From Botryllus schlosseri (lineage: Eukaryota), in assembly GCA_051294905.1 (NCBI GenBank), contig CM119371.1:8868001-8932000 (forward strand): 64,000 bases of DNA, in the 5' to 3' direction. The notes beneath the pieces were generated by a model. That model did not search any database. It worked only from the letters and a program-made list of their open reading frames with translations, and was not told the origin of the DNA. Position 1 is the first letter of the stretch, and each line of letters opens with the position of its first letter. This document shows positions 13,123 through 30,023 of the stretch, in pieces. Position numbers and translations under genes: made by a program.

Positions 13123-13357
13123 AACTTTCATGACCCGAGGGCAGTTCATTCAACTCTTATTTAGGCCTATTATAATTCATCAAGCACCTTAGGGCAGTTC
13201 AAATCCATAACTTTGATGTCATTTCGACATGTTGTGAGATACGATTTCGAAAGGTTGTTATTATAATCACGCAATATAATCGTGACTCGGAAGCGTATAA
13301 CAAAATAGTTTTTTTTTTTTATTAATTTTTTTGTTCTGTTTTATTAGTACCGTTTTA

Positions 13358-16300
13358 CTATGATACCATAACGCGTCCGCCCAATAGATTATCAGTTTCT
13401 TGTTCTACGACCTCCTTCTCTTGTAACACAGGTCTGGTATGCAACTTTCGCATGCTAATTCCGTGGTGGATGTTTCTATTGACAATTTTCCGCCTTGTAC
13501 TTGATTCTAACTTATTTCTTCTGCGATAATACTTCTTGCTAATGTATATCAAGGCTGCCACGGAAAAAAATAAGATAATGACGACCATCATTAATCTTTT
13601 ACTTTGGCCTTTTATTGGCCCTTGAATATTCCGTACATGAATGCCAGTCATTATGAAAGGTACTAGTTTTACCGAGTAGTTTTCTTCCATCTTTAATAAT
13701 TCATGTAGTTTTTCTGTTAAATTGAGCCTTATCAAAGTGTCTGTGGCATTCTTCGAATCGTACCCCCATATCTCAAGCGTGGAGACAGGGGCTTTAGCAG
13801 TTATCATTTGTGAATCGTTCCCTCCAAGAGTTGGGGGTAGACTTTTAATTGTATTCGGAATGCGAAGGGCCTTAGGGGTTTGTACCATGACCTCCTCTAT
13901 ACGGGAATCATTGAACCGTGTAATTACACGTGTCGTTGAAGGGTCGTCGATATTTTCACTGGACTCATTTATGGTGGTTTTGGTTCTATTGACCAACGGA
14001 TTCGGTTCCCTCGGTTCCGTCATATGCAATTCTCCACTCCTTCCGGCTTCTGGCAATGCTCTGGACATCGATGTACTTCCAGTGCCTTGCAAACCCCGAA
14101 TCACTTTCATCATTAGTATTGTGGCAGCGATACTTGGCGGTGTAGTTCCTGTTCTTTCGGTAGTAATCTCCGTCCCAGAAGAGGTCGTGCCATTTGGTAA
14201 AATTATCTTCGTCCCAATAGCAGCCGTGGTATTCGAGTGCATAGGTTTTATAATCATAACGGTCGGGTTACTCTCCTCCGTTGTACCCAAGGTCGGCCGA
14301 GTACTTAGAATTGTGGTTTCATAATCGTGGTCCCGAGATCGTGATGGATTCCTTATTACTTCAATTCTGTCTTCCAATGTCGAATTTGAGGTGTTTCTGG
14401 AGTAATAACTCAACATGGCTTGTAGAGGTACCTTTAGCGTGGAGGATATAACTGTTTCCGTTCCACTATTTATTAGGGATTCATCGCTATGTGATAATTC
14501 AGATTGGTTCTGTAGAGGGTGGCTTCTAATTGAATCCTTAGTTGTCGTAGAATTTGGGGTGGTCATAATTGTCGTAGAATTTGGGGTGGTCAGAATTGTC
14601 GTAGCGAATTCTGCATAGCTGGACATAGGACGTGTTGTTTGTTCCACCATTACCGTTTTCTCTCCTGAAGGGGTATTCTGGATCATCCTCCTGAGTTTTA
14701 AATTAGGTCTATTTGAAATTGTACTAATGTTCGCTGCATTCCCATACAGAGCGGGTCGTGTTGTTATAACTTCGGACCTCCATACGTCGGGAACAGGGAT
14801 CATGCTCCTTGAATCACTGTATTGTATGGGTTGTGTTGTTCTCACTCTTGAGGGAATAGTAGTACTATTATTCGTTATATTCCAGGGTTCTGTTGTTACC
14901 AAGAATAAATTGTTCCTTGATGACATCGAAAACTTTCCCTCCCCGTCTTTTTTCGAAAGGGTAGCAGTAACTGTTGTATAAGGAACGCCAGTCGATTTTT
15001 CCACAGAAGTGAGTATTGTCATGTTCGTCAAACGGGTTGTATGCGATGTGTTGTTATGATCTACCGGTCCTTCAGTAGGGGGAGAGGTGGGTTTGTTAGT
15101 AAATGGGTCCGGGTTTGTAGCAGAAATGTCCCCAGGCAGGGTGGGCGTCACATTAAAAAGGCGAACAGTAGTGTTAGACATGGACAATGTCCTATCCTTT
15201 CTGGTATCCACTTCAAACACGTTGGGTTGATAATCGGTCGTTATTCTAGCCTTTTCCGGAGGTGGTGAGGTTTGGATTATTTTACCAAGTGCCTCCGTTA
15301 TAGTTGTGTTGATGACGGTCAAATGCTCGTCCGTTGATGACCACAGAGGATTCGCCCTGCTCGTTTCATTTCCCACCACCAAAATCGTACTGGCGTGATC
15401 TGAAAAATTGCTAACACCTTGTTTAGTAAGTCTTCCCCTAATTATTGTCATAAGAGGAGGAGCTTGTGTGCTTTCCGACACATTTCCCGCCGTCGAGGCT
15501 GGGACTTCTATAGTGGTCAACACGTTATTGGGAGCTGCTGTAGTCGTGTTCACCAAACGTAAGCGAGGCCTTTTTTTGTAGGCGTATGGTGTGTAAATAA
15601 GGCTTCCATTCAGAAAGTATGCCTTGTAACACACGTCCGGAGCGAATAGGTTAGTTTGTCGGGATTTTGCTTCCAATAAACTCTGGGCAGTGGCCATTTG
15701 GCTGAACGCTCTGTTCAGCCTTACAGCGTCAGATCCTGAAATACCCTTCTGCTGTCGGTTAATTTTGTTGAGAATCATATTTTTTGCCCTTCTTGGTATT
15801 ATTTCGCGGCTCATAACCATCTTTAACCGAGACCTTATAATAGCTATTGGTCTGGTTAAATTTCTGATTATGTCGACAGCTCGTTTGCGGGCTTGTAGCC
15901 AATTCTGACGAAACCACCCTTCAAGACTTTGTCCATTCGCACCTGACATCGTGAGAAGGAATGCCTGTTCTCTTTTTCTTGCTAATCCAGGAATATGCGT
16001 AAGCGTAGTTCCGACAAATTCTCCTCCGTAGGTGTTGACAAAAATGGGATGATTCAATGATGGATCATACGTCACTAGATTCCCCATAATGAGTTTGGCA
16101 GCCACCCCGCTGAAAGGATTGGTGCACTCTGTTCGGTTTGCGACACGGCCCTGACAGTTCGGATCTAAAGCAGTCATCGACGGGGAGGTTATTTTTATAG
16201 GCATACTCCCTTTCTGACGTCTCTTCGGTCCATCCCGTAATCTGTTGTTGGCATAATATCCGCCCTCCAATGAAATGTTAGCACTCGCCTTAACCCAAAA

Positions 16301-17221
16301 TATTCGATTTGACATCACCTTATCGAAAACTCCTGTGGGCCATAAGTTTTCAGACGCTGCCAGTTGTTCACCATTGTTTATGGGGTTGTCCGTGTTTTCT
16401 CTCGTAGTAAATGTGTCAATAGTAATATCTTCTTCCTGAACAATAAGTCCAAAATCTACAATACCAATCACTGGGTTTTCACCAGTAAATCGACAAGTAT
16501 AACACGTCGGAGATTCTCCTTGAGTAGTTGAGCAGGCATGGAAGTTTCGCATTGTAATGATTAGTCTAAAAGAGACTGGATTCCAATCCCTCGTGCAGTC
16601 AGCTATTACCCCGCGATAGTCTTTGAGCAAACTTATCACGAGAAATTTATAAACAGTCATGATAGGTGTGTACTTATTCCCAGGATTTCCGCGAGGGAGG
16701 GTGAATTGGTTTTCAGCCCATTGCCAAACGAAGCGTGCATCATACTGTTCCGACCGATGGAATCGAATTCGCCTCCCCAGGTAGGAATAATTCAAGGGTG
16801 GTTTTATGTAGAGAATTCTCCTAAGACACGAACAAGTCTGTTCTAACTTCAAAGGATCATCCCAGTATTGACCCTGTGATCCCCTCGGGAGAAGGTTATT
16901 CCGCATTGTTTGTCCAATAGTTTGTATCTTGCCAAACTGGGCATCATATCCGACAATTTCTCCATCAGATTTATAGCGATGTATTTGTTCGGGGTTCGTG
17001 TTAGCCAATGTTATTTCTAAATTGAATAACTCTTGAAGTAGTGCCCTCGAGCTGTTAAACAAGCTCTCGTCATAACGGGTCCATGTCGAAGTGTTCAAGC
17101 TTTCAATAGGTAATATCTTCATGTCAATAAAAGGGACTCGGCCAGTAACATGAGAACGTCCTGACCACGCGGCCGACAGTAAAAGGACCATAACAACGAT
17201 GATGTGATCCAACTTCTTCAT
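13358..17221 (-). CDS. Envelope-like type I glycoprotein 2 (1287 aa): Env1-paralogous N-terminal domain, long S/T/N-rich mucin-like stalk, TM and basic tail
   Basis: Signal peptide MKKLDHIIVVMVLLLSAAWSG; Cys and motif colinearity with the 785-aa ORF; many N-x-S/T sites; TM LMMVVIILFFSVAALIYI followed by KKYYRRR. Confidence 0.8.
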   Translation of the reverse strand: MKKLDHIIVVMVLLLSAAWSGRSHVTGRVPFIDMKILPIESLNTSTWTRYDESLFNSSRALLQELFNLEITLANTNPEQIHRYKSDGEIVGYDAQFGKIQTIGQTMRNNLLPRGSQGQYWDDPLKLEQTCSCLRRILYIKPPLNYSYLGRRIRFHRSEQYDARFVWQWAENQFTLPRGNPGNKYTPIMTVYKFLVISLLKDYRGVIADCTRDWNPVSFRLIITMRNFHACSTTQGESPTCYTCRFTGENPVIGIVDFGLIVQEEDITIDTFTTRENTDNPINNGEQLAASENLWPTGVFDKVMSNRIFWVKASANISLEGGYYANNRLRDGPKRRQKGSMPIKITSPSMTALDPNCQGRVANRTECTNPFSGVAAKLIMGNLVTYDPSLNHPIFVNTYGGEFVGTTLTHIPGLARKREQAFLLTMSGANGQSLEGWFRQNWLQARKRAVDIIRNLTRPIAIIRSRLKMVMSREIIPRRAKNMILNKINRQQKGISGSDAVRLNRAFSQMATAQSLLEAKSRQTNLFAPDVCYKAYFLNGSLIYTPYAYKKRPRLRLVNTTTAAPNNVLTTIEVPASTAGNVSESTQAPPLMTIIRGRLTKQGVSNFSDHASTILVVGNETSRANPLWSSTDEHLTVINTTITEALGKIIQTSPPPEKARITTDYQPNVFEVDTRKDRTLSMSNTTVRLFNVTPTLPGDISATNPDPFTNKPTSPPTEGPVDHNNTSHTTRLTNMTILTSVEKSTGVPYTTVTATLSKKDGEGKFSMSSRNNLFLVTTEPWNITNNSTTIPSRVRTTQPIQYSDSRSMIPVPDVWRSEVITTRPALYGNAANISTISNRPNLKLRRMIQNTPSGEKTVMVEQTTRPMSSYAEFATTILTTPNSTTIMTTPNSTTTKDSIRSHPLQNQSELSHSDESLINSGTETVISSTLKVPLQAMLSYYSRNTSNSTLEDRIEVIRNPSRSRDHDYETTILSTRPTLGTTEESNPTVMIIKPMHSNTTAAIGTKIILPNGTTSSGTEITTERTGTTPPSIAATILMMKVIRGLQGTGSTSMSRALPEAGRSGELHMTEPREPNPLVNRTKTTINESSENIDDPSTTRVITRFNDSRIEEVMVQTPKALRIPNTIKSLPPTLGGNDSQMITAKAPVSTLEIWGYDSKNATDTLIRLNLTEKLHELLKMEENYSVKLVPFIMTGIHVRNIQGPIKGQSKRLMMVVIILFFSVAALIYISKKYYRRRNKLESSTRRKIVNRNIHHGISMRKLHTRPVLQEKEVVEQETDNLLGGRVMVS

Positions 17222-17343
17222 CGTGGTTCTTGTTATAAGTTTATAAATCTTAGTCGTATTCCTATACCTAAATGCAGTTGTTTATGTCATTAGTCTGTCT
17301 TTAGTCACTACTTGTCTTTTCTTATAAAGAATCTTTGTATTAC

Positions 17344-19701
17344 CTATCGCCGAATAGTCAGGGGTGCCATATAAGCCGTATATGTCGTCAACTCATTTCG
17401 GTTATTTCGACCTTGTATCTTATCATGTGTTCTCCTTTTGTTAGGGAAGACGACCGGGTAGAGTTTAATCATACAAATAAGTATTCCGATCACAACCACT
17501 ACAATTATAATCGGTGTGAGTATTCCCGTTAGACTCCCAAATATCGCACCCAAGCCAGAACCAAATAACCCGCTCACTCCGTCAATACCCTGGGAGAGTA
17601 TTTCCCCAGCTCCTTCCGCTACGCTCCGAATAATCGTTCCTGTGCCATTAGCGACGGTCTTAACGGCATCCCCGAAGTCATCAAAGAATTCTTCCCCTAT
17701 TACGCGATTCAAGTGGATAAAACTGATATTATCATACTCCATATTTGAAGTATTTACAAACACGCCGCTGTCCACATCTTCTTGCCAGCGTTGCAATTCA
17801 ATTTCAGCTTGGTAGTCGATGCTCTGTATTTCTCTTCGCGTGTTTTGTAATTCCAACGCCTGATTTTCGGAAACATTTGCATAGTCGCCTTTCAGCTCAA
17901 TCATTTTCTCCGCAATTTCGCGTAGGCTTAAAATCCCTGACTTAATTCGTACAGCGTACGCCTTGTTTCTATCAAATATAGGTTTCGCTGTTAGATTTTG
18001 TAACTCCTGCATAACCAATTGATTAATGCTCAACTCAGCCAATGTCATTTCTTGTACGGTTTGGATCGTGGATAGATAACTATCCACTTGTGCTAATATC
18101 ATGTTTCGATTGGTCCATATCATACTGGTGATAGTTTGGAGCCTTGCCTCGGTAGCTGCTTCCCTTCGCAGATTTGTCAGGATCAACTCGTTCAATTTCT
18201 GAGCCCGGGCAACCCCTATAAGGGAAAGATCGTTTAATCCGTCAGCTACCGTCTTCAAATCATTTTCTATTTGTGTAAATCGGGCGTTCAGTTGCGCAGT
18301 TAAGTCGTCCATATTTTTGTTGATCATGTGCTGTAGATTTGAAGTTACGGCCAGAGTTAAAATTGTCGAGAATGCTAATACGAATAATGAGAAAAACATT
18401 CTTTTTCGCCTTCCCGTCCCTCCTGGAAGTGTAGAATTCCCGTCCTCTAAACCTGTTTTGTGACCTCCCAGTACCACGAGAGGTTTTCCGGGGTATCTTC
18501 TTCGATTGGCCTGGGAATCGTAGATAATGTCGTCCCAATAGGACAGTTTCATGTGCAAGTCCCCAACAGGATATTCACAGGTTGCTTTATTTTCCCGTAT
18601 TCGTCTCACACACCGCTGATCGTCCTTCAATAACGAAGGGTATTGGCGGTATATCGGTAATATTCCCGAAATCTTGATAGGCTTCCTTCCATCCATATAA
18701 TCTAAGCCGTATTTATTCGGATAAGTGGGTCGAATCCAAATTATATTTTCCGGTAAAGTTGGTTTGTCACCCAATATAGCATTTCTCCACACAGGTGCTG
18801 ACGGGTGGTAATTGTGTACTCCAGGCACATATTCCATTTCAATGTCTAGCGACGTCTTTAAATTTCTAGTTGGGTCCTCTTCCTGTATAAGAATTTTGCT
18901 AGGATGGGGTTGATAAGCCACAACCAAACCGCGAAAAGTACAGGTCGTACATCGTAATATCTGGAGTAGACGAACACAATCCACCAGATCTGTAGAACTA
19001 TCGTTGTAGATATTTCTTTGTAACATCATTGCCTCGGTCCTTACCGTATAGGTGACACAATTTATTCTAATACTAGAATATGTGGCAAACATTTTCAACG
19101 CTTTTAATTTATACTTCATAATGGCTATCTGGAATAGGCCGCGAGGATTCCAGCCTCTAATCGTTTCGTCCGTATCGTTCCACCTCCATACCAACCGGTA
19201 ATTATTTCCAGTAGGTCTCACATATACATTTTCCGATTCCAGAGCTTTCAAGTTCAGATCAGGCGTAATATATGCCTTTGTTCGTCGACACAAGCAAGTC
19301 TTTTCGAACGCATTTATATCTTCCCAATAATGCCCAGTCGGATACATGTATTCTTGAAACGTGATCTTCTCGGCCTTCACATAACCAAACGTGGATGAGA
19401 AAAACAATCCAGGGTTACTAAAGTTATAAGTTGAATTCCTTATGTCCCAGCACGACGCTAGAGAAATGTGTTCCCAAGGCGATGATTTCAATTCGGTCCA
19501 ATCTGCGGGAAATTTCTTAGGCAGCCTTCCAAACTGAGCCTGGACTATCGTTCCAGCTCTGTCGTCATAGTATGGTATTGTGCTTGCGGTGGTAGTTATA
19601 TTACTTGCAGATATTGTCGATCCCGTCGTCCTCGGCAATAGCACACTAAGTGTATGAAGCAAGCCACACAAGTAATAATTAATAGTAGAAACGCTGACCA
19701 T
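17344..19701 (-). CDS. env: Envelope fusion glycoprotein-like protein 1 (785 aa)
   Basis: Signal peptide; furin site RRKR (18400-18411) immediately followed by hydrophobic MFFSLFVLAFSTILTLAV; heptad-repeat region; Gly-rich amphipathic membrane-proximal segment; TM IIIVVVVIGILICMI; Kozak context GCACCATGG. Confidence 0.85.
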   Translation of the reverse strand: MVSVSTINYYLCGLLHTLSVLLPRTTGSTISASNITTTASTIPYYDDRAGTIVQAQFGRLPKKFPADWTELKSSPWEHISLASCWDIRNSTYNFSNPGLFFSSTFGYVKAEKITFQEYMYPTGHYWEDINAFEKTCLCRRTKAYITPDLNLKALESENVYVRPTGNNYRLVWRWNDTDETIRGWNPRGLFQIAIMKYKLKALKMFATYSSIRINCVTYTVRTEAMMLQRNIYNDSSTDLVDCVRLLQILRCTTCTFRGLVVAYQPHPSKILIQEEDPTRNLKTSLDIEMEYVPGVHNYHPSAPVWRNAILGDKPTLPENIIWIRPTYPNKYGLDYMDGRKPIKISGILPIYRQYPSLLKDDQRCVRRIRENKATCEYPVGDLHMKLSYWDDIIYDSQANRRRYPGKPLVVLGGHKTGLEDGNSTLPGGTGRRKRMFFSLFVLAFSTILTLAVTSNLQHMINKNMDDLTAQLNARFTQIENDLKTVADGLNDLSLIGVARAQKLNELILTNLRREAATEARLQTITSMIWTNRNMILAQVDSYLSTIQTVQEMTLAELSINQLVMQELQNLTAKPIFDRNKAYAVRIKSGILSLREIAEKMIELKGDYANVSENQALELQNTRREIQSIDYQAEIELQRWQEDVDSGVFVNTSNMEYDNISFIHLNRVIGEEFFDDFGDAVKTVANGTGTIIRSVAEGAGEILSQGIDGVSGLFGSGLGAIFGSLTGILTPIIIVVVVIGILICMIKLYPVVFPNKRRTHDKIQGRNNRNELTTYTAYMAPLTIRR

Positions 19702-19857
19702 GGTGCCGGCACAGGTACGTCGGGAAATTTCATTAATTATAATTTTTTCAAATAGCTGTAAAGTTATCTGTCTGTAAAAGCATAAATAGGGTTAGGCGAA
19801 TTGCGTTCTGTGTTCGAAGCCGTAATATTGTCTCAGAGAGGAGGGATAGAGTATGTT

Positions 19858-20862
19858 TTAGGCGACAGTGGTACCACATACATTGAAACGAGGGTCCTCC
19901 CTTATGGACCTTAACAATGACTCAAATATGTCGTTTCTGTCATGCTGACGTTTGTATAACCACTCATCTACGTACTCTTGTAACAAGTGTCTGGCCAGTC
20001 CACGCGAGCGCCTCATGTGGTGCTTCAGACTAGACCAAGCCGCTTCCTGATCGTTCGTATGCGTCCCATCAGGCGCTCGAAACATAGCGCTATGGTCGAC
20101 TGATCTGTGTTTATAATCTTGCCCCCACTCCTCTATGCCATTATAAGAGGGGTAACAATCCGTTAATATGGTAGATCCCCTGGCTATATTATTTACAAGT
20201 ATACGCTTCATTACCGCTGCCGTCCTGTCAGATGTTATTTCTGCAAACATTTCTCCTGTTGCTCGGTCAAGTCCACCCACAACCCAAACTGCCTTCCGGG
20301 CTGAAGGATCATTGGTCGTGTCGCGACGTCGCTTCGCCAGATGCGACTCGTCCACAACTATGATACTTTGGTAGCCGCCTAGTTTTCGTTTATGTCGTCG
20401 TAAATCCGCAGCACACACTCGTCTCAAGCATCCAGACCAAAACACAATAGATCGGAGGCTAATTTCTGATTCGTGGGAGATGTGATTTTGCGGGCTGTCG
20501 TGGGCCCAGAAATATGTCATTATAAGTAATTCAGGTAGCCCAACCTTGCTATTACTAAATATAGATCCTTTCCGAATAGAGGAGGTTGTCCTGCACTCAT
20601 TTTGTTGGCAGCGATATCTCCATCCATCATCGCTGGCTCCTGTTCGCTCTTCTACCATTGTGGATCTGCATTTTCGACAGGTCATTTGCCGAGACAGTAA
20701 TCCTTGGCTTCTCATGAACATAATGCAATCGCGGGTATTCAGTAAGACTCCAGATTGGGCCAGACGTAGTACATTATGGGGTACTTCTTGAGCGTCTGTA
20801 AGGGTAAAAATAAAATAGGTACAGATATATTCTTGGTTGGTTTGCACCTCTTGTGTATTCAT
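19858..20862 (-). CDS. IS1595/ISXO2-like (Merlin-type) DDE transposase, copy 1 (334 aa)
   Basis: N-terminal CxxC..DGWRYRC..C Zn ribbon, SIRKGSIFS, VVDESH, VWVVGGLDR, STILTDCYPSY, VDHS..F..PDGTHTNDQEAAWS, YVDEWLYK. Confidence 0.9.
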   Translation of the reverse strand: MNTQEVQTNQEYICTYFIFTLTDAQEVPHNVLRLAQSGVLLNTRDCIMFMRSQGLLSRQMTCRKCRSTMVEERTGASDDGWRYRCQQNECRTTSSIRKGSIFSNSKVGLPELLIMTYFWAHDSPQNHISHESEISLRSIVFWSGCLRRVCAADLRRHKRKLGGYQSIIVVDESHLAKRRRDTTNDPSARKAVWVVGGLDRATGEMFAEITSDRTAAVMKRILVNNIARGSTILTDCYPSYNGIEEWGQDYKHRSVDHSAMFRAPDGTHTNDQEAAWSSLKHHMRRSRGLARHLLQEYVDEWLYKRQHDRNDIFESLLRSIREDPRFNVCGTTVA

Positions 20863-20906
20863 GTCTCTTTCTTGTAACTTAAGATAACACTGTGAAATTT
20901 TACTGA

Positions 20907-23900
20907 TTATTGTTTTTTGTCCGCAAACTGTATTACTGCGGAAGGGATGGGTCCTCTACACAAAATTACATCTGGGTTGGGTGACTGCCACATAATCATA
21001 CCCAATTCCCTGATTTTGCTGGCGTCAATTTGTAAAGCCACCTTTCGTCCCCGAGATTTCCCACTTCGGGTTAGGCTAAAGTGAATGTATTTCCGGGGCA
21101 TTCTTTCAAGCTCAGTCTGCATAATCCGTTGAGCGCCATTCCGCGTAGTCATGTGGTACAGCTTGTCGTTACCAGTATATTCCTCATAAGCGGGAGGCTC
21201 ACCCACGGTATGTCCGTGTGCAGCCGCGAGCCCCTCATCTTGAAGAACAGCCCTGGAATTGTTTTGCATGATTGACCTTAGGAAGTGACTTTGGAACTCT
21301 TTCCCCAGTTTTCTCCTTAGGATTTCTTGCAGATGTCCCCAGGGATGAAATCCACCATGGCTGTGGTCACATACCTCGTGCCTACAGTGCCGCATTAAAA
21401 GTCTCTGTATGAATTCATGTCTGGCAGAGTCCAATTCGTTTGGTGCGTCCGCACTCTTCGTCGTAGGTAAAGTGGTCCATACACAAGGGTCGTCTTCCCC
21501 TGCGGCCATTTCCATCCAATAAGAACGAGAAAGCCCATCGGATGTGAATACCTGTAGCGTACTTAAATGAATCACTTTATCTATTTGGAATCCTGATAGA
21601 TGGTTGAGCCATCGCTGGATTAGTGGTTTTGGGCTCGGATTCGCAGCTTTTTCTGTCATCCTTTTCAATAGTCCGAATACCCCTGTATTGTCTGTGATAA
21701 TGGTAAATGGTATTGCGCGCAACATAGATTGCCATTTTTCCACCGAATCTTTTAGAGCTTTGAGCTCTTTTGTACACGGATCATATGCCTTTGCCGTTTG
21801 GGTAGTCCATTTTTGGCTATAAAAAGCAATCGGGTATATCTTCGTAAAGGGCGGTTTTTCTCCTTCTTCTGTCTGAAATATTACGGAACCGAATCCTACA
21901 TCAGAAGCATCGGTTTCGATATACAGCGGGAGTTCTGGGTCCAGATGATATAGTACCCTTGCGTCGTCCAGTAAGGCTTGGGCCACCTTATAATCATGCA
22001 ACAACTCATCGTTCCATAGTAAGGGCGTTACTCTTCCTTGTGTGGCCGGTACTTTCCCCGTTAACGCGTCGAACTTTGCTAGCTTCAGGCTCAATTCAGG
22101 TATGTGTTCTGAGATGTATCTCAATGCCCCGATCCAACCCCGTAGCTCATAAATGTTATGAGGTGGCGCAAGTTCTTTCAGGGCTCTAACTCGTTCGGGT
22201 TGGACCTCAATTTCTTTGCCTGTTAAGGTTGCGCCCAGCAGATTCACTCGCCGCTTGCCAATGAAACACTTATTGATGCTCACTGTCAATTTCATCTTAG
22301 CCAATTGTTCAAACACCATTCTGAGCAGCACCAGGTGATCCTCAATGGTCTTTGTGCTCAGGAAGATGTCATCAATGTAGGCCTCCATAGGCGTCACAGT
22401 GGACTCATCAGTCCTCCCACATTCTCGCATGAAGCGTTGATAATTCTCAGTGATGGGTTTAACCACACATTCCTGCATATTTGAAGTCCAAAGGGCTACT
22501 GCGGTCCGAAGACCCATTGGCATCTTTCGCCAGCGTATATGCCTGCCCTTTACGGCAATGCCTACGTATTGTTTTGATCTTTCCGTCATTTCCATGTGAA
22601 AATAGGCCTTCTTCAAATCCAATAGGGATAGTACCTCACGACCTTGAGCAAGCTGCTTCACGTCAGGTACTAATGGAGGGGGTACCTCTATGGATTTGAT
22701 GGCTGCATTAAGGGGTTGGAGATTCTGTACAACCCTCCATGCCTGTTTCCACCCGCCTTCTTGCTTCTGTCTTTCGTTCATTTTTTGAGGTACTACAAAT
22801 ATGGCCAGTTTCCATTCAGCAAATCCTTGTTCAATGACTTCGAGATCTAAAAAATTATCCACAGCCTCTTTTAAGGCTTTTGCCTGTTCTTCGCCCTTTA
22901 GATTATAAGGCCCTGACACAAAAGGTTTGGTTGAAGGGTCCTTCAATTCGATGTCACATTTGTATTTCATGGCTTGTGGGGCTTTGAGGTGTCCTCGTAG
23001 ATCTTCAAGTTCCGTAGCGTAAGGTTGATATACCTTCCTCCATTCTGCCTCAGGTACGATAGTGTTATCTGGGCTGGTAAGATCCGGTGGCTTATAGGGT
23101 GATTTCGCCAGTTCTACAGCTTGTTTACACAATCTTTCTAATTCGTCTCTAACGTCTGTCTTGGTCCCTTTACACAGTTCATACGTAGTTATCGGACCGC
23201 GAATTGGCCTGGTTGGGCCTTGACGTATTTCCGGTACCGATGGAGAGGGGGCGAGGTCTCCTTTGGTCAGTGGGGCTTCCACACTCGACTTGTTCTGCCT
23301 CTGAAATAGGCGCGTGCCCGCACCTATTTTCACGCCGACGACTCCCTTTTCCCTTGTCGCCGGGGGCCCTTTTTCTGGTAGGGTTTGCATATTTCCTCCA
23401 GACTCTTCGTCATCCACCCTGTTCTCTTTCCCAGAGGAGATGGCGACAGCTGCATTTGAAATAGTTTTCTCGGTTGGTGGCACGACGAATGCGACCATCG
23501 GGTCGTGGACAATATGTCGGCCGTTTTTATCAGGATCCTTCCATACGCCCGTGTCCTGATTATTGCTAGCGGGAATTCTTCGCTCAGCATGATTGGATTT
23601 GGGGGGGACACTACCCCCCATATTGAGATTAGCGTGACCGGACGTCCTCCCTTGTGCGCTAAATCTCTCCGAGAAAGAGGGATTGCCGAAATCCCGAATA
23701 ACGTCAGCGGGGCTTCCACACTCGACGTTGTAGAATGTCGCAGCTTCCATCGCTCCGTCACCAGAAGCAACGTTGCAAGTGCTACTTCTGTTTCCGGTTC
23801 CTTCATCGCCAATTAACGCGGCAAACGTCAATTCATTATTAACTGCAGTAGGGTCTTTAAATTCCATTTCTATAGATGGAAGTTGCTGAACTTGGTCAAT

Positions 23901-24323
23901 CCACTTCAACCCTATAATATTTAATGGTACTCTATCACCAGTCGCAAATGGAACTGGTAAGCCATCTATCATGATTATTATCAGGTAATCAACACAGGAC
24001 AATCCACCTATGCCGCGCAATTTCATTTCGAAAGGTTGCCTTTTGGCCCAACTAAGGGGGTATTTATCCTTGGCTACCTCCTTCAAAATCAGATTTGGGA
24101 CACTTCCCGTGTCGGCTAAGAATTTAGTTCCTGTTTTTTTGTCCATTAGGTACAATAAACGACCACCGAACAATTCAGTAAAGTCAGCCTGTGGCGTATT
24201 GTCCGGTATGTCGAGAAAAGTAAATAGGGGTAAAGAAGAATTATGTACAGTTTTAACGTGGTAAGGTAACACTGATTCGGGCAACTGATTTACCGGATCC
24301 ATCAGTGCCCCCAGTCGTTTTTT
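20907..24323 (-). CDS. pol: Pol polyprotein (aspartic protease, spacer, RT, RNase H, Tpt1/KptA-like domain); probably made as Gag-Pol by -1 frameshift; no integrase
   Basis: LADTGS protease (24105-24113); RT motifs WRVVQNLQPLN, LDLKKAYFHM, MPMGL, YIDD (22368-22379), LLG; Ty3/gypsy-type RNase H ETDASDVG..PIAFYS..KELKAL..IITDN. The ORF-track start at 24362 is TTG. Confidence 0.92.
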   Translation of the reverse strand, partial: KKRLGALMDPVNQLPESVLPYHVKTVHNSSLPLFTFLDIPDNTPQADFTELFGGRLLYLMDKKTGTKFLADTGSVPNLILKEVAKDKYPLSWAKRQPFEMKLRGIGGLSCVDYLIIIMIDGLPVPFATGDRVPLNIIGLKWIDQVQQLPSIEMEFKDPTAVNNELTFAALIGDEGTGNRSSTCNVASGDGAMEAATFYNVECGSPADVIRDFGNPSFSERFSAQGRTSGHANLNMGGSVPPKSNHAERRIPASNNQDTGVWKDPDKNGRHIVHDPMVAFVVPPTEKTISNAAVAISSGKENRVDDEESGGNMQTLPEKGPPATREKGVVGVKIGAGTRLFQRQNKSSVEAPLTKGDLAPSPSVPEIRQGPTRPIRGPITTYELCKGTKTDVRDELERLCKQAVELAKSPYKPPDLTSPDNTIVPEAEWRKVYQPYATELEDLRGHLKAPQAMKYKCDIELKDPSTKPFVSGPYNLKGEEQAKALKEAVDNFLDLEVIEQGFAEWKLAIFVVPQKMNERQKQEGGWKQAWRVVQNLQPLNAAIKSIEVPPPLVPDVKQLAQGREVLSLLDLKKAYFHMEMTERSKQYVGIAVKGRHIRWRKMPMGLRTAVALWTSNMQECVVKPITENYQRFMRECGRTDESTVTPMEAYIDDIFLSTKTIEDHLVLLRMVFEQLAKMKLTVSINKCFIGKRRVNLLGATLTGKEIEVQPERVRALKELAPPHNIYELRGWIGALRYISEHIPELSLKLAKFDALTGKVPATQGRVTPLLWNDELLHDYKVAQALLDDARVLYHLDPELPLYIETDASDVGFGSVIFQTEEGEKPPFTKIYPIAFYSQKWTTQTAKAYDPCTKELKALKDSVEKWQSMLRAIPFTIITDNTGVFGLLKRMTEKAANPSPKPLIQRWLNHLSGFQIDKVIHLSTLQVFTSDGLSRSYWMEMAAGEDDPCVWTTLPTTKSADAPNELDSARHEFIQRLLMRHCRHEVCDHSHGGFHPWGHLQEILRRKLGKEFQSHFLRSIMQNNSRAVLQDEGLAAAHGHTVGEPPAYEEYTGNDKLYHMTTRNGAQRIMQTELERMPRKYIHFSLTRSGKSRGRKVALQIDASKIRELGMIMWQSPNPDVILCRGPIPSAVIQFADKKQ
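20910..21425 (-). other. Tpt1/KptA RNA 2'-phosphotransferase-like domain at Pol C-terminus
   Basis: Colinear family motifs: CRH (LRH), GGF (dGw), IMQNNSR, AAHGHT (RAnqGHS), LYHMT (lyHGT), ERMPRKYIHFS (kpmkRqhVHLS), ALQIDA, QSPNPDVILC..PIP. Confidence 0.8.
24262..24323 (-). promoter_or_regulatory. -1 programmed ribosomal frameshift signal (A AAA AAC plus stem-loop/pseudoknot)
   Basis: In the gag frame GCA AAA AAC (24317-24323); pol is in the -1 frame; downstream GGGCACTGAT pairs with ATCAGTTGCCC, and loop GGTAA could pair with a later TTACC. Confidence 0.8.
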
Positions 24324-27295
24324 GCTAATCTCAACCCCTGGTCCAATTCCTCGTCGGTCCAATATGGATTAATACGGGATTGTGGGGGATAATATGGCTG
24401 GGTCCATGCTACCGTATCGGCATTGTGAGTGGGTCCCCGTGGTCCCCATTGATCTCTATCGCGCCAATGGGTCCTGTCTCTATTCTTAGGTCTTTCGTTA
24501 TAATACGTGTCACACAGGGCTGTTCTCTCAACAAATGAAGGGGACCCTTGTGAGGCTAAGTATCGATCCAAATCAGGTATCGAGAGTAGTCGATTTTCAG
24601 TTAGAAAAGGACGCCAATTCCTTTCTACAAATTCCTTTATGCGAGGTGGTACAGGTCGTCGTCGCTTTTGGATTACCCATCCCTCGGTATCGTCTTTAGT
24701 TAGGACCTCCTCATTCAGCCATAATATGAATTTGGCTACGCAATTTCGAGATTGGTGCCCTGGTGCCTTGCAATAATAACATACAGACAATGTTTGCCCC
24801 TCTGACGGGTTCAAATATAAGCCTAGAGGTGCAAAAATATTGGGGTTACCAAGGAAATTATACCTCTCACCTTGACTGTTGGAAATCTGGCTCGCCTCGT
24901 GGCTACTCGATGGAGTTGCTTGAGAATAGTCCCTTCCGAAGCCCGAATCCTGCGTCTGCGAAAATCGCGGTTGTCCTCGGTTTAATGTTCTCCTTTCCTG
25001 GTTCGGTCGCGAGGTCGGAGAGTTCTGAGAGTAGTGACCGTTACCTCTATCTCCCGCTGGACGTCTCTGCGAAGGCGAGATCCCCTGTGGTCTATTCGCT
25101 ACCCCACCCTTCGAAGTGGGTCTTTCCCGACTGGGATTTCCGTGGGCTATTACCGTCGTGGGGAATCGGTTCGTCTTTGCGGCCCTGCCTGGGTTTATCC
25201 TTGTCACAGGCTGGTACGTTGTCCGGGCGCGTCTTCCGACGTCCATAGGTTGTCGACTCTGAGGTGACACGTTGTTGAGCATAGATTGTGAAGAGGGAGA
25301 GGGCGAGTTGATAATGGGGGGCGTGGGGGTACGTATCGGCTGGGAATTGTCTATTCTCCCATTTCCAGTGGGCTGGGTTGGGTAGCTAGGCATCATGTGT
25401 CCGGCAGGTTGTACATTGTAAATATGTACGGGTGGCAGAGAAGGAGCACTTACAGCGTGTGCCTTTTTGTTGGGAGCCCTCGTCTCGCTAGGGAACCTCC
25501 CTTCTTCCTGATCGTCTAGGAACTCGGAATTCCAGAACATCTGTAACTCCTCAGCCACTTGTTGCCACGTCCCCTCTTCCCAACCGCGGATCATCATTCT
25601 CAACGCCTGAGGCAGTTGACGTCGTAGATGTCTGAACAAACGCAGCCCGTCGGGGTTTTTCTTAATGTAGCTTCCCATATTTATTTCGAGTTGCTTCAGC
25701 ACACTATTCAACAACGGCAGTGGTTCTTCATTCCAGGAGTAATTACTCCGAAATTCGTTAATGATCTTTTCGTTATTCACTAAACCTTGAGGGTTGGAAA
25801 GGTTGAGGGACCTCATAACGGAAAACCAACTCGGTTTGCCCGAGTTGGTGTTGAAAAAGTTTCCCAACTGTCTGGCCTGCTTTATACGTCCTGCCTGTCT
25901 CAGCTTTTTCTGCATGGCGTTTGATAAGATTATATCTTCGTTCGTATCCCCCTCTCCATGATCGATGCGAGCCATCGTATTAGCCATCCATTTAACAAGG
26001 GGCATGTCGTCCGGGTCCATCATGAGTTGCATCATTTCCTTTTCGGTTTGTAATCTGATAGGCCGTTCCCCAGCGTGGAACTCACGTGCTTGACTCGGGG
26101 TCCCCAATTCCCCTGGTGGATTGCAAGTATAACCTTGTTGCTGTTCTACAATTCCTTCCTCACTGTAATCAGGAGTGGACTCAAACCGTGGGGAACCAGC
26201 GGTGAATCGAGACGGGAAGTAAATCTGCCTAAAATTGCTAGGATCGCGGAGAGCGTCTTGTGGTTTGTGGCCATTATTGTTAAGGATAGAAGTCTTGGTT
26301 TCCCTATCTTCTAGGGGACCTCTTCCAATCCTTTCAAAAGTAACGTGCCTGGTTTCGTCTGGCTCGCTCCTCGCTCGTCTTTTGACGGAGATTTTATCGC
26401 TTGTTCGTTGACCGTCCTGTCCACGTTGGTCGTCCTGCCTACCCCGGTCTCCTCCTATTCGTACCAATCCGGCCGCCCCATGATACTGTTTCGTGGAGTC
26501 GTGTTCATGTTGATCTTCCACGCTCGGTCTAGGACGGATCGGCGTGTACATGTCAGTGGAGGGACGTCCTGATGATACGGTCGGAGGGCCGTCCGGCCCA
26601 AATTTATCCAAGGATTTCGAGCGTCTCATCCCTTTGGCACTAAGCAGTCCCTGACCGGGACTGGCTGCCAGTCTAAGAGCGGGACTGGCTGGTTGTAGGT
26701 TTCCGGTTTTTTGAATCGGTTGTTGCTGGGGTGATTTGTGTGTTGGACCTTCCGACTGAGTCTGGGGGGAGGCCGTATATACAGCTGTAATTGTATGGCA
26801 ATCAAGTCCTTTGCTCACATGAAATTTGGGCCTAAGGACGGCTCCCCCCCATGACGGGTTTGTTGGGTGGTGATATGCTGGTGGGGGTGAAGTGGGTATT
26901 ACTGTTAGCGCGTTAGATGGTCGAGAGGTCTCCCCGATTACCGACGCATGTTCCTTTCCGAGGTCGAATTCAGCCTTCAAAACTTCGTTTAGTACATCTG
27001 TGGAAACTTTACCACTGACCTTGGTGGTAGCGTCACATACTGCTTTCAAATCAGCCTTAGCCTGTTTTACCTCTTTCTTTATTTTGTCCAATTCTTTCAT
27101 AGTACCCGGCAGGACTGTTTTGACTTCCTTCAGCAGTTTGGTTTGGTCTGCGACACTTTGAGTGAGTCTTTTTTCCTGATCCTTTACATTTTCATGGCGT
27201 AATTGTGTGGCTCTGAACAGCTGAATTCCTTGTTCTAATTCCGCAGCTGTCTCCGTTGATCTTTTCTTTTTGAACAACTTCACCATTTTTTCCAT
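24302..27295 (-). CDS. gag: Gag-like polyprotein (997 aa)
   Basis: N-terminal coiled coil, PPAY motif, central helical domain, CCHC knuckle CYYCKAPGHQSRNC (24740-24781), position directly upstream of and overlapping pol. Confidence 0.85.
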   Translation of the reverse strand: MEKMVKLFKKKRSTETAAELEQGIQLFRATQLRHENVKDQEKRLTQSVADQTKLLKEVKTVLPGTMKELDKIKKEVKQAKADLKAVCDATTKVSGKVSTDVLNEVLKAEFDLGKEHASVIGETSRPSNALTVIPTSPPPAYHHPTNPSWGGAVLRPKFHVSKGLDCHTITAVYTASPQTQSEGPTHKSPQQQPIQKTGNLQPASPALRLAASPGQGLLSAKGMRRSKSLDKFGPDGPPTVSSGRPSTDMYTPIRPRPSVEDQHEHDSTKQYHGAAGLVRIGGDRGRQDDQRGQDGQRTSDKISVKRRARSEPDETRHVTFERIGRGPLEDRETKTSILNNNGHKPQDALRDPSNFRQIYFPSRFTAGSPRFESTPDYSEEGIVEQQQGYTCNPPGELGTPSQAREFHAGERPIRLQTEKEMMQLMMDPDDMPLVKWMANTMARIDHGEGDTNEDIILSNAMQKKLRQAGRIKQARQLGNFFNTNSGKPSWFSVMRSLNLSNPQGLVNNEKIINEFRSNYSWNEEPLPLLNSVLKQLEINMGSYIKKNPDGLRLFRHLRRQLPQALRMMIRGWEEGTWQQVAEELQMFWNSEFLDDQEEGRFPSETRAPNKKAHAVSAPSLPPVHIYNVQPAGHMMPSYPTQPTGNGRIDNSQPIRTPTPPIINSPSPSSQSMLNNVSPQSRQPMDVGRRARTTYQPVTRINPGRAAKTNRFPTTVIAHGNPSRERPTSKGGVANRPQGISPSQRRPAGDRGNGHYSQNSPTSRPNQERRTLNRGQPRFSQTQDSGFGRDYSQATPSSSHEASQISNSQGERYNFLGNPNIFAPLGLYLNPSEGQTLSVCYYCKAPGHQSRNCVAKFILWLNEEVLTKDDTEGWVIQKRRRPVPPRIKEFVERNWRPFLTENRLLSIPDLDRYLASQGSPSFVERTALCDTYYNERPKNRDRTHWRDRDQWGPRGPTHNADTVAWTQPYYPPQSRINPYWTDEELDQGLRLAKNDWGH

Positions 27296-27301
27296 AATTA
27301 T

Positions 27302-27532
27302 TTAACTAGTTTCGTTATATGGAAAATTTCTAACAGGAAATAGTGCCTCACTTGTTGATTCCGATATATTTACCGAGTTGGGTAGACCAAGAGTGGGGGC
27401 AGTAGAAGTAGGAGGGGCCACAGTAGGAATTAAGTGAAAATACAAGGAATCCAAAGTGACCAGTAGTGTTATGAGTGAAGCGACGACGAAGATGAGAAAG
27501 GCTCCGCCGAAACAACACGTTTTGAACCGCAT
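27302..27532 (-). CDS. Small single-pass membrane protein (~76 aa from ATG) abutting gag
   Basis: Hydrophobic run AFLIFVVASLITLLVTL; stop codon 6 nt before the gag ATG. Confidence 0.45.
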   Translation of the reverse strand: MRFKTCCFGGAFLIFVVASLITLLVTLDSLYFHLIPTVAPPTSTAPTLGLPNSVNISESTSEALFPVRNFPYNETS

Positions 27533-28443
27533 CAGATCGTCCAACCTCAAAACTAATTTTGTTATATCTTCGGGGAGAATGTGTTTATCACCTTAAGTGT
27601 CTTTTCAACGCTGTTAGGTATCCCAGTGGTGCCTCCAATAGTTTTAAGTGAAGCTCCACGGCGATTGCACGTGCGAGTATGTCTCCACTTGGTTCGGTAT
27701 CCTTCCAGTGTTGAAATTGCACTTGTATGGTTCTTCACACCCTATTCCGCGCTTATGGTTGATTGAAGTAAATGCAATGACCGTTTGATTGAACAATTCA
27801 TCAATCTTTTACCGGTCCAGCGGCCAGATCTTGGTCTATACTATAAGATAAATCTTAATACAACCTTAATACAACCAAATACTCCAATCTTAATCACGTT
27901 CAATACTCGGAAAAGGACTATAGCGAATATAAATCAACACATGACTTAGGCTATCAATCCATCGTTCAAGTACATCACGCAATTATATAATGATCTTCAC
28001 ACCAATTCTCAATATTATTTCGCAAATCCTACAGTGAATGGGTCTTGCCTAAAGTGTTGGGTTTATTATACTGTTAACACAGGTTTTTGTTATTCCATCC
28101 TTGTTTTTCGTGGTCATTCACTGGTAGTTTTATTTAGTTTATGACGTCATAGCATTTCCAGGGCAAGCAATTCCCGTTCCTACGATAATCACACTATAGG
28201 GGCATGTGATTTTCAATCCACCTAGGCACAACTCATTCACTGCTATTCATCCCCATTAGAGGAATTGTAAAAGGACTGAATCCACATATAATACGATATT
28301 GTCTTAGACCTAAGTAAATGTAATCATGTACGCACCAGAAATAATTAAAGACACAAGTATTTACACACAAATTTAGTTACGCTTTGTAATATACACAGTC
28401 GCCATTAACAATTGCCCCCTGGTGTATTTCATTTTAGCGGACT

Positions 28444-28989
28444 TCATTGGTATCCTGGGTCCGCATAATCCAAACTGTATTGGTTAATTCTCTGTCGTCG
28501 GTTCTTAAGAGTATCAAATACTTTTGAGATATTTTGTCGTGTTTGGCGCCTCCCGGAAGTAACCAATATCTCTGTTGGCGCCCCTCTTTGTGATTCTTCG
28601 GTAATGGTACTTTTCAGGTATTGCCTTACCCTTCCCAGCTTTTGTTCCGCATCTCCCTCGGTGGACTTATGTATTGTTCTGCATCCTTTTATGATCTTCA
28701 ATACCTTCAGGGATCGCTCACGGACTTTGTCCGGATTCTGTTGTTCTCTTGTCTCTGCAGGTTCAGCAGATATAAAAAATCTATGTAGTATATCATTGAG
28801 GGCCTTCAGGGTAGGCTTTTCTATGTTACTCATCAACCCAATCAGGATGTCGAACTCCTCGATGGTTGCAATTAGTGCTGTATTTACACTGTAGCTTCTA
28901 GAATGAGAGATCTCAATTCTCTTGATGTTTCGGCAATGAGGCATGTTCCCAATCGTCCAATTCTTCTTAATACACCTTAGGGTGTACAA
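28444..28989 (-). CDS. Hypothetical helical/basic protein (181 aa; first ATG 28944)
   Basis: Uninterrupted ORF, same strand as the cluster; no recognisable motif. Confidence 0.5.
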   Translation of the reverse strand: MYTLRCIKKNWTIGNMPHCRNIKRIEISHSRSYSVNTALIATIEEFDILIGLMSNIEKPTLKALNDILHRFFISAEPAETREQQNPDKVRERSLKVLKIIKGCRTIHKSTEGDAEQKLGRVRQYLKSTITEESQRGAPTEILVTSGRRQTRQNISKVFDTLKNRRQRINQYSLDYADPGYQ

Positions 28990-30023
28990 TGTTCAGTCAA
29001 TGGCGAACTGGTTTTATACTACAATAGCGTGGAATATGTGCCTAAATTACTCTAACATCGGGTACCTCTGTAACATGCACATCCAACACAGTCCAATTTT
29101 CATAAATCAACTTCATGGTATCAAAGAGGATAAGGGGATAAATATATGGATATGCGTTTTTACTATTAGCAGCCTTCGATTGAACTCATATGCACGAAAC
29201 AATAGTCACTCACAGGTACACTCTTATAGCATTTGATTCCAAATTCATAGTATATGTTTTATATTTTATATTTTTTCACACGAAATGCATGAATATTCCG
29301 CGAATATGGACTAAACAACACAGGATTTACATATTCGTGTACATCCCCCCAACACCAGATCAGGAGTTATTAAATGGTATATTCATTTTGATTGGTGCCA
29401 CCTGGAGGTAGCCCCAGGTATAAACTGGTGAAATAGGGGATTGGAATTCAAACGTAAACCGTTACATAGGTGATATTCATTTACGTAATCTTCAACACGA
29501 TTCCTGAGAGAGAAAAGGTTAAGGGTTGGATCCTTGTATCATAGTTAAGAAGATTTTGTGTTAATAAGTGATATATCATAATTAGTATTTAATTACTGAT
29601 ATGAGTAAATATAGTATCTTATTAAGGGCGAATAAATATCTGTTGTAATGACAACGGCGCTTTTTCTTACTAATGGCCCGTATGGTCAGCCAGGTGATTA
29701 AATCACCACTAATCTTTTCAGTCACTGTGGTCTTTTTCATAATATAAGATTATGATACCATATCTTATCCAATTTGGAGGGGCTATTGACCTTAACTGAA
29801 ACATAAGGTTACAGTGTCAAATTCCAGAAATATGTATGTATATGCAAGGATTCATGCAATCGTCAGAATTCTCTAAATTAGCATTCGGATACAAGTGATT
29901 AATCAATCGAGAAACACATGGAAACTTTTTTATTCGATAACTCGACGCTTTAATAGCATATTAGTGTTATAAACGTGAAAAATCTCAACCAGAGTTATTT
30001 CTTCGGGCATGTATTCTGACCGT

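Follow-up and report, generated by a model that had tools for sequence, protein, structure and literature searches.

The retroelement and the C-terminal domain of its Pol

The window analyzed herein is a 64,000-nucleotide stretch of the Botryllus schlosseri genome (NCBI GenBank assembly GCA_051294905.1, contig CM119371.1, positions 8,868,001 to 8,932,000 of the forward strand). By open reading frame (ORF) calling, five closely spaced ORFs were located on its minus strand, from about 27889 to 13309, and all five are open. They are gag, pol, a DDE transposase gene (ORF3), and two envelope-like glycoprotein genes (ORF4 and ORF5), as listed in Table 1. Judged by its gene content, the unit is an envelope-carrying, Ty3/gypsy-related retroelement without an integrase and without detectable long terminal repeats (LTRs). 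Its Pol protein ends in a domain of the Tpt1/KptA family, the NAD+-dependent RNA 2'-phosphotransferases.

The C-terminal domain of Pol is a true member of the Tpt1/KptA family, both in fold and in sequence. The profile PF01885 (PTS_2-RNA, Tpt1/KptA) matched pol residues 1008-1137 at an E-value of 3.3e-9, and its 37.5 bits exceed the gathering cut-off of 26. The last 197 residues of pol, used as query P0001, matched TkoKptA (9ld4_A, E 9.3e-9), and eight distinct Tpt1 chains were matched at E <= 1. The domain was modelled by AlphaFold2 from a 28-row alignment with a pLDDT of 87.5 and a pTM of 0.70. When this model was searched by Foldseek, the first 22 PDB matches were all Tpt1/KptA entries. The two lobes of the Tpt1 fold are present: an N-terminal winged-helix RNA lobe, which carries R994-H995 and R1037, and a C-terminal NAD+ lobe of the ADP-ribosyltransferase (ART) type, which carries H1070-M-T1072, R1090, and H1094. 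A Tpt1/KptA-like domain lying in frame after RNase H, in the usual place of the integrase, had been proposed from the letters alone (the original prediction), with a PF01885 match, a structural match to Tpt1, and further fusions of reverse transcriptase (RT), RNase H, and Tpt1 named as the things to look for. The profile match, the predicted structure, and the many relatives with the same fusion all agree with it.

Table 1 Features of the retroelement, in the coordinates of the window.
Feature	Position	Strand	Description
Spliced-leader (SL) exon copy	27865..27889	-	25 nt; 570 nt upstream of the gag ATG; candidate 5' end
Putative 5' leader	27296..27864	-	between the SL copy and gag
gag	24302..27295	-	ORF of 997 aa; one CCHC zinc knuckle
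Slippery heptamer A_AAA_AAC	24317..24323	-	inside the 61-nt gag/pol overlap
pol	20907..24362	-	ORF of 1151 codons; protease, RT, RNase H, Tpt1 domain; no integrase
Reverse transcriptase domain, pol 539-713	22224..22748	-	PF00078 (RVT_1), E 8.5e-18
RNase H domain, pol 783-925	21588..22016	-	PF17919 and PF17917, E ~3e-18
Tpt1/KptA domain, pol 976-1146	20925..21437	-	profile, alignment and model evidence
ORF3	19858..20862	-	334 aa; IS1595/ISXO2 (Merlin-like) DDE transposase
ORF4	17344..19701	-	785 aa; envelope-like glycoprotein
ORF5	13358..17221	-	1287 aa; second glycoprotein
AATAAA (13340-13345) and A-rich tract (13309-13332)	13309..13345	-	candidate encoded poly(A) end

Conservation of the Tpt1 fusion among related retroelements

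An exhaustive HMMER search of 1.84 billion representative sequences with P0001 returned 38 matches at E <= 1e-3. Seventeen are retroelement-type (P0002-P0014, P0016-P0018, and P0021), and the other 21 are canonical or otherwise fused Tpt1 proteins. A word-indexed protein search with the Tpt1 part had given no match among Pol-length proteins; that blank is attributed to the word index, since the exhaustive search then found the relatives. Linkage of the domain to RT and/or RNase H was demonstrated by Pfam in P0003, P0007, P0011, P0012, and P0018. The C-terminal motif of RNase H is visible in P0014, P0016, and P0021, and the remaining retroelement-type matches are short fragments. P0021 was counted as retroelement-type for its RNase H tail and its clade signature. 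PF01885 was matched at E <= 1e-3 in 11 of the 13 retroelement-type relatives scanned, nine of them at or above the cut-off; P0014 and P0016 hold the N-lobe only and gave no PF01885 match.

The RT-RNase H part was also used as a query. Five close Pols were found at 42-52% identity (P0007, P0041, P0042, P0043, and P0044), one of which, P0042, represents 215 member sequences. The E-value then fell off from 1e-98 to 1e-25, where gypsy-type Pols bearing rve and chromodomains began, at 19-27% identity, the nearest of them at 22-27%. No rve or other integrase domain was found by Pfam in these five Pols or in P0011. PF01885 is carried by P0040-P0043 (below the cut-off in P0043), and P0044 ends before the Tpt1 position. 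P0007, P0011, P0041, P0042, and P0043 have the order protease/RT-RNase H-Tpt1. The architecture of the window element recurs in independent records from four sources (P0003, P0007, P0011, P0012, P0018/P0040, and P0041-P0043). Because the fusion and the family match hold across these relatives, the outcome that was to speak against the original prediction, a missing family match or a fusion absent from related copies, was not what was found. A metagenome scan with an alignment of seven Pols returned 79 loci, all generic gypsy elements matched in RT-RNase H only at 22-28% identity, and the Tpt1 domain was found in 0 of the 79.

In a maximum-likelihood tree of 31 domains, the 16 retroelement-type rows and the 15 canonical ones fall on opposite sides of a branch supported at 100/99. 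P0021 was included as retroelement-type, P0010 and P0013 were left out as too short, and P0040 lies on a long branch. On this sequence evidence, Tpt1 was captured once by the ancestor of the retroelement lineage and has been kept since. The only named relative is P0006 (XP_039263204.1) of Styela clava, annotated as "probable RNA 2'-phosphotransferase". This protein is probably a mis-annotated Pol fragment, since its start is the conserved linker between RNase H and Tpt1 and its place in the tree is within the retroelement clade.

Conservation of the catalytic residues

The residues of the domain were placed by an HMMER alignment to TkoKptA and by a MAFFT alignment (A1) of 14 retroelement-type and 14 canonical rows, from which gaps were excluded in the counts. 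For the cellular enzymes, the positions are taken from excerpts of the published structural studies, and the other biochemical papers cited below are likewise used as excerpts. The catalytic tetrad is R18, H19, R68, and R121 in CthTpt1, where K66 and Y80 lie at the phosphate, H101 and T103 contact the NAD+ ribose, and R139 and R140 contact the diphosphate (PMC6333775). It is R17, H18, R65, and R118 in TkoTpt1 (PMC12678800) and R14, H15, R62, and R115 in PhoTpt1 (PMC12170183). In PhoTpt1, the glycine of the HGT motif binds the nicotinamide and the carbonyl of Gly109 binds the adenine N6, both via the main chain (PMC12170183).

In the Pol domain, R994-H995, R1037, and R1090 align to the tetrad, and H1070 and T1072 align to the ribose-binding pair. 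The Arg-His-Arg-Arg site is therefore complete in this copy. Within A1, the four tetrad positions are occupied in 9/10 (Arg 1, A1 R40), 10/10 (His, H41), 13/13 (Arg 2, R83), and 14/14 (Arg 3, R136) of the retroelement-type rows and in all canonical rows. The ribose-contacting residues are equally constant in the retroelement-type rows, with His (H116) in 13/13 and Thr (T118) in 14/14. The H-H-h signature of the ART lobe is present: H1070-M-T1072 is the HxT that contacts the adenosine ribose of NAD+, with Met for the middle Gly of HGT in the window copy, and H1094 is the second His, in the (V/I)H(L/F)(S/T) strand. The Ser/basic pair of helix 1 is retained as S/Q/T followed by R/K/H in the retroelement rows.

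The same residues were compared in an alignment of seven full Pols (A2), which share 34-41% identity with the window Pol. R994, H995, R1037, R1090, H1070, T1072, and H1094 are invariant in all seven, and so are the RT YxDD motif and the acidic residues of RNase H. Among the seven Pols, mean pairwise identity amounts to 0.48 in RT, 0.37 in the protease, 0.30 and 0.36 in the two Tpt1 lobes, and 0.23 in the spacer; the lobes thus come near the protease and lie higher than the spacer.

The retroelement clade also has a motif of its own, H-x-R-H-x-x-C (pol 992-998), which surrounds the first two tetrad residues (~21345-21389, minus strand) and is followed by a conserved His-Pro-Trp at about residue 1006. 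Its first His is present in 10/10 retroelement-type and 0/14 canonical rows, and its Cys in 9/10 and 0/13, respectively. H992 and C998 are invariant in the seven full Pols, and the motif is absent from canonical Tpt1. It may be a metal site.

Gag, Pol, and envelope-like genes

The RT-RNase H of pol is related to that of Ty3/gypsy elements, and gag, a DTG protease (motif at pol residues 84-86), RVT_1, and RT_RNaseH are all present. The zinc knuckle of gag is a weak match to zf-CCHC (E 9e-4, 19.6 bits, slightly below the Pfam cut-off of 20.8). The ORF coordinates place pol in the -1 frame relative to gag, and the A_AAA_AAC heptamer in their overlap is presumably a classical retroviral -1 frameshift site. 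In an independent DNA run, 20453-22728 was recovered on a single contig with 0 differences. The putative 5' leader has a GC content of 0.41, compared with 0.37 in the flanks, and contained no ORF with a Pfam match and no tRNA or Rfam match.

The translation of ORF4 starts with a signal-like segment, has a C-terminal membrane span, and contains an RRKR site with a hydrophobic stretch behind it. RRKR is a furin-type site, and the features of ORF4 are class-I-fusogen-like. Its nearest protein Atlas clusters are viral class I fusion proteins with scores of 0.87-0.89, which serve as leads only. The N-terminal ~350 residues of ORF5 are paralogous to ORF4 (BLASTP E 2e-17, 23% identity over 353 aa); behind them lie a long, mucin-like region rich in Ser/Thr/Asn and then a membrane span. 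No Pfam family was matched by ORF4 or ORF5. By analogy, the tandem paralogous glycoproteins (13358-19701, minus strand) recall a pair of fusion and attachment proteins.

Nuclease modules in the absence of integrase

No rve, Integrase_H2C2, or other integrase family was found by Pfam in the five ORFs or in 11 smaller overlapping ORFs. Downstream of pol, ORF3 matched PF12762 (E 1.9e-13, 51.2 bits, cut-off 27) and the NCBIfam IS1595 transposase model NF033547 (77.8 bits, cut-off 75). Its N-terminus has a Cys-rich, zinc-ribbon-like motif. The acidic residues of ORF3 are conserved with a second DDE copy in the window and with P0071-P0073, and the D, D, E(x7)K pattern, which we take to be the motif of the IS1595/Merlin family, is kept.

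A gap of 45 nt separates ORF3 from the pol stop, and one of 157 nt separates it from ORF4. No inverted repeats bracket it at 19858-20862, so that the terminal inverted repeats (TIRs) of an IS1595/Merlin transposon were not found, and a separate Merlin transposon inserted into the element was rejected on this ground. With no inverted repeats of its own, a preserved acidic triad, and tight spacing, ORF3 appears to belong to the element as one of its cistrons and not to be a transposon inserted there. The composition of ORF3 did not discriminate between the element and the host. The spacers before ORF3 (20863-20906, minus strand) and ORF4 (19702-19857, minus strand) are pyrimidine-rich and splice-acceptor-like (...TTTCACAG and ...TTTTACAG). 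From the sequence of this region, separate splicing or SL trans-splicing might provide the mRNAs for the downstream ORFs.

The second DDE copy is a free-standing paralogue at 30024-30959 on the minus strand, 9 kb away and 41% identical to ORF3. No convincing inverted repeats were found around it and no retroelement remains nearby. A second element at this place was rejected, as that DDE gene was the only match when the five element proteins were compared by tblastn with the remainder of the window. This IS1595/Merlin-type gene is a possible representative of the source family of ORF3. A search for DDE homologues gave only four matches, all on short contigs, and no link of DDE to Pol.

A nuclease of another kind occupies the same position in a relative. 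In P0040 (1122 aa, from the cluster of P0018), RT-RNase H-Tpt1 is followed in frame by a complete APE-type endonuclease (Exo_endo_phos, 225/225 profile positions). As judged from these sequences, Tpt1 lies directly before a nuclease module in two branches, and the modules are of different origin (DDE and APE).

Ends of the element

The 25-nt segment at 27865-27889 is an exact match to the "Chordata 1" SL consensus as given in Table 1 of PMC3795323, and it occurs once in the window. GT comes next, and the last 11 nt of the segment are then repeated in tandem. Thousands of reads from two bulk RNA runs fell on 27858-27889, with a constant adapter-like sequence on one side, presumably a template-switch oligo, and diverse sequences on the other. 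This is the pattern expected of SL-capped mRNAs and implies a chordate host that performs SL trans-splicing. At the other end, AATAAA lies 12 nt past the ORF5 stop and the 24-nt A-rich tract 8 nt further, and RNA reads containing poly(A) attach at 13308/13309 and 13332. An encoded poly(A)-like tail is unusual for an element with gag, pol, and env. Joints between 27889 and 13308 in the RNA reads are most simply explained as adapter/oligo-dT artefacts.

The element may have arisen as DNA copied from a polyadenylated RNA that carried a trans-spliced SL. Such an origin would fit nuclease-primed reverse transcription and not LTR-type replication. Alternatively, the SL copy is an adjacent SL gene or pseudogene and not the 5' end of the element. 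Three observations weigh against the RNA-copy origin. The SL copy is followed by GT as in an SL gene, and about 27854-27896, a stretch that takes in 7 nt upstream of the SL, seems to recur in DNA contigs of other loci. The search for a target-site duplication was not convincing, as 63 of 2000 shuffles reached the score of 19 that the two flanks gave in their best local alignment.

No direct repeat joining the flanks was found by a repeat search of 8000-34000 and of the whole window or by blastn (word size 9) of 27296-36000 against 6001-13400, a search which very short or diverged LTRs could escape. No tRNA-like site (ARAGORN) and no Rfam element (E <= 1) was found. A ~170-nt repeat (12941-13122 and 48594-48783) was considered as an LTR and rejected for its arrangement in tandem units.

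Surrounding sequence

The context of the window is that of a repeat-rich animal genome. MITE-like non-coding elements with termini CCAGGGTTGTAA / TTACAACCCTGG and internal GAGTCAAGTC-type subrepeats lie at 6628-8736, 9648-9815, 33445-35687, 38963-39334, and 40515-40682. An inverted repeat of ~510 nt (10809-11320 and 44084-44596, 81-93% over four pieces, 33 kb apart) brackets the retroelement and much else, and it is formed either by two repeat copies or by the ends of a larger unit. Further genes are a hAT-type transposase with a Spin-doc zinc finger (49972-51789, plus strand), an RT fragment of another retroelement (52928-53803, minus strand), and a NACHT/NOD-like gene (61498-62925, plus strand).

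Possible function of the Pol Tpt1 domain

The reading we favor is that the Pol Tpt1 domain is a once-captured, active NAD+-dependent enzyme which acts on the element's own nucleic acid, and we place it slightly on the probable side. The case for an active enzyme is that the phosphate-holding R994, H995, R1037, and R1090, the NAD+ ribose residues H1070 and T1072, and the ART residue H1094 are all preserved. We infer both the activity and its direction toward the element's own nucleic acids from these protein sequences. In such a mechanism, Gag-Pol would be made by -1 frameshifting, which would bring the Tpt1 domain beside RT and RNase H. A phosphate monoester on nucleic acid of the element itself would then be the group with which the domain attacks NAD+.

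Capping of 5'-phosphate ends of RNA or DNA is documented for several Tpt1 enzymes (PMC6182162), and TkoTpt1 is active on 5'-phosphate DNA (PMC12678800). Tentatively, and well short of an even chance, the substrate would be a 5'-phosphate at an end or nick produced while cDNA is made or the target is cut. If this 5'-phosphate were capped with ADP-ribose or removed, resealing or degradation would be blocked, and the 3'-OH would be left free for priming or joining. The 5'-phosphate is suggested by the position of Tpt1 directly before a nuclease, together with the clade-wide loss of the Lys that assists step 2. In TkoTpt1, mutants such as K63A and Y77A form the intermediate and give no final product, and K63A accumulates the ADP-ribosylated intermediate (PMC12678800). 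The more detailed scenario is unlikely as a whole: an env-bearing chordate lineage of tunicate type, without LTRs and integrase, in which an SL-capped, polyadenylated RNA would be copied by nuclease-primed reverse transcription (IS1595-type DDE in one branch, APE in another), and in which Tpt1, by ADP-ribosylating or removing the 5'-phosphate of the nick or cDNA end, would add a step so far unknown in retrotransposition.

Several observations weigh against an active enzyme or against the proposed substrate. The NCBIfam equivalog model NF002013 gave 51.1 bits against a cut-off of 231, and by this measure the Pol domain is a homologue in its own clade and not a Tpt1 at the equivalog level. Three positions common in canonical Tpt1 are lost in the retroelement-type rows of A1. 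The Arg of "IRA" (pol 1046) is present in 0/13, compared with 13/14 canonical rows; the Gly of HGT in 0/14 (Met in 10), compared with 12/14; and the Lys two residues before the third tetrad residue (R1037 in Pol), at the position of TkoTpt1 K63, in 0/13, compared with 11/14. At pol 1084 (21111-21113, minus strand), the window copy carries Glu; of the 27 other aligned rows, 26 carry Gly at this place and one carries Thr. As the carbonyl of this glycine binds the adenine N6, the window copy may be impaired even if the enzyme of the family is active. RNA depth over the element ORFs was 0-0.18 in the 6% and 13% sampled of two bulk RNA runs; this means that there was no strong expression in the two sampled runs, and nothing more. 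With regard to the substrate, sequence cannot choose between 2'-phosphate and 5'-phosphate, as the phosphate-binding residues are the same for both; in excerpts of PMC12170183, identical active-site residues serve the internal 2'-phosphate and the 5'-phosphate reactions. The lysine argument is weak as well, because Lys62/Lys69 are non-essential in the Runella and yeast enzymes (PMC6333775).

Two of these substitutions, HGT to HMT and RA to AA, had been taken in the original prediction as signs of altered specificity. Both are real and clade-wide. The altered specificity cannot be read from them, because the changed residues are outside the tetrad and the Gly of HGT contacts the nicotinamide through the main chain only. 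The "IRA" Arg is not named as a contact in the excerpts of PMC6333775, PMC12678800, or PMC12170183. The functions suggested in the original prediction, which were to heal or cap ends or to counter host defence, are hypothetical.

The main alternative, though an unlikely one, is that the domain is a canonical RNA 2'-phosphotransferase, which clears an internal 2'-phosphate or a terminal 2'/3'-phosphate from the template or primer for RT. The phosphate could come from tRNA-ligase-type joining or from the healing of 2',3'-cyclic ends left by host ribonucleases. The full R-H-R-R tetrad is retained, as is the helix 1 Ser/basic pair, which holds the flipped junction base. Among the published excerpts, every Tpt1 surveyed so far performs the 2'-phosphate reaction (PMC6182162), a subset also removes terminal 2'/3'-phosphates (PMC6573784), and the presence of a PTS_2-RNA domain in picorna-like RNA viruses suggests an RNA-directed benefit (PMC11316551). 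However, no ligase, kinase, or cyclic phosphodiesterase domain is found in any of the ORFs, so that there is no visible source of 2'-phosphorylated RNA, and the Lys and Tyr which aid the second (transesterification) step in TkoTpt1 (PMC12678800) are not conserved in the retroelement clade.

The loss of several canonical positions across the clade, the score far under the equivalog cut-off, the Glu at the near-invariant Gly of the adenine-binding loop, and the near-zero RNA coverage of the locus would also be expected of a non-catalytic or relic module. Such a module would bind nucleic acid or NAD/ADP-ribose and serve structure, packaging, or end-binding, or it would be part of a decaying copy; the extra H-x-R-H-x-x-C motif hints at a modified N-lobe. 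This alternative is clearly unlikely. The catalytic and NAD-contacting side chains are invariant at 34-41% Pol identity, like the sites of RT and RNase H, which is hard to explain without catalysis, and all five ORFs are open.

Host targets were considered as well. In excerpts of the respective papers, Tpt1 can use the 2'-phosphate of NADP(H) (PMC10622864), ADP-ribosyl transfer is common in host-virus conflict (PMC8120803), and unrelated RNA viruses gained the same domain independently (PMC11316551). The domain could thus be a counter-defence or host-manipulation enzyme with targets such as the ends of host RNA or DNA, NADP(H), or a nucleotide of immune signalling. We regard this as very unlikely, because the fusion in cis to RT-RNase H, with a nuclease module alongside in two lineages, indicates a role inside the replication complex, and no result suggested a target. 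Finally, an artefact, either a mis-assembly or the one-off capture of a host Tpt1 fragment by a single copy, is close to untenable: nothing was found in its favor, the closest named relative being a stand-alone Styela clava annotation, and it is refuted by the relatives with the same architecture; the identical 20453-22728 stretch in the independent DNA run speaks against it as well.

Comparison with known systems

To our knowledge, every well-studied retrovirus and LTR retrotransposon ends its Pol with an integrase. What Tpt1 does apart from tRNA splicing in fungi and plants has long been a question. If the favored reading of an active, Pol-borne Tpt1 is true, the pairing of an NAD+-dependent phosphate-modifying enzyme with nucleases acquired from elsewhere would represent a new way of priming and inserting cDNA. 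Tpt1 enzymes would gain a concrete biological setting, in which a 175-residue domain has the ends of replication intermediates as its hypothetical substrate. A survey of env-carrying gypsy elements based on integrase would overlook the Tpt1 group, and the tunicate annotation "probable RNA 2'-phosphotransferase" probably denotes a retroelement fragment.

A full-text literature search, which did not extend to Repbase-type databases, turned up no Tpt1 domain in a retroelement, no IS1595/Merlin transposase inside one, and no integrase-less gypsy-type env element. In the literature searched, the combination of a retroelement Pol with Tpt1 in place of the integrase is undescribed. The only viral precedent found, in excerpts of PMC11316551, is the PTS_2-RNA domain of two picorna-like RNA viruses. 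In these viruses, the picorna-like and dicistro-like EPlV2 and PVLADV1, it lies between VPg copies inside the replicase polyprotein. The capture in EPlV2 and PVLADV1 is independent of that in the window element. These viruses have no reverse transcription, and the position of the domain differs; the two cases are compared by description.

Compared with the cellular Tpt1/KptA/TRPT1 enzymes (PF01885; TkoKptA 9ld6, PhoTpt1 8tfz, CthTpt1 6e3a, and human 7yw3), the window domain is instead fused to the C-terminus of a retroelement Pol. In the retroelement-type domains, the "IRA" Arg, the HGT Gly, and the Lys preceding the third tetrad residue are missing, the loop before the last sheet is shorter, and the H-x-R-H-x-x-C motif is present; in the tree, these domains form a clade of their own. 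The window domain scores 51 bits, where the equivalog cut-offs are 231 or more.

The errantiviruses, env-carrying Ty3/gypsy elements of metazoans including tunicates (PMC13524379), are similar to the window element in having gag, a protease-RT-RNase H pol, and a downstream envelope-like fusogen gene, and the two probably share tunicates as their host group. Errantiviruses have an integrase, LTRs, and often a tRNA primer-binding site (PMC13524379), and none of these was found in the window element. In contrast to errantiviruses, the window Pol ends in Tpt1, and the genes after it encode a DDE transposase and two paralogous glycoproteins. The terms "phosphotransferase" and "Tpt1" are absent from the text and the seven supplementary files of PMC13524379; the supplements also lack "PTS_2" and "IS1595", and "transposase" occurs 0 times in the main text, the only part counted for it.

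With regard to the nuclease, ORF3 passes the family models of Merlin/IS1595 (ISXO2, IS1016) transposons, but it is one cistron between pol and env and has no TIRs. Replacement or loss of the integrase occurs elsewhere: DIRS/Ngaro elements use a tyrosine recombinase, Penelope elements a GIY-YIG nuclease, and LINEs an APE or restriction-like endonuclease, and Caulimoviridae have none. No Tpt1 domain or IS1595-type transposase turned up in these integrase-less groups in the literature searched. The Tpt1-bearing lineage resembles LINEs in that P0040 has an APE-type endonuclease and the window copy ends in AATAAA and an A-tract. Unlike DIRS/Ngaro, Penelope, LINEs, and Caulimoviridae, it combines a gypsy-like RT with protease, gag, and env.

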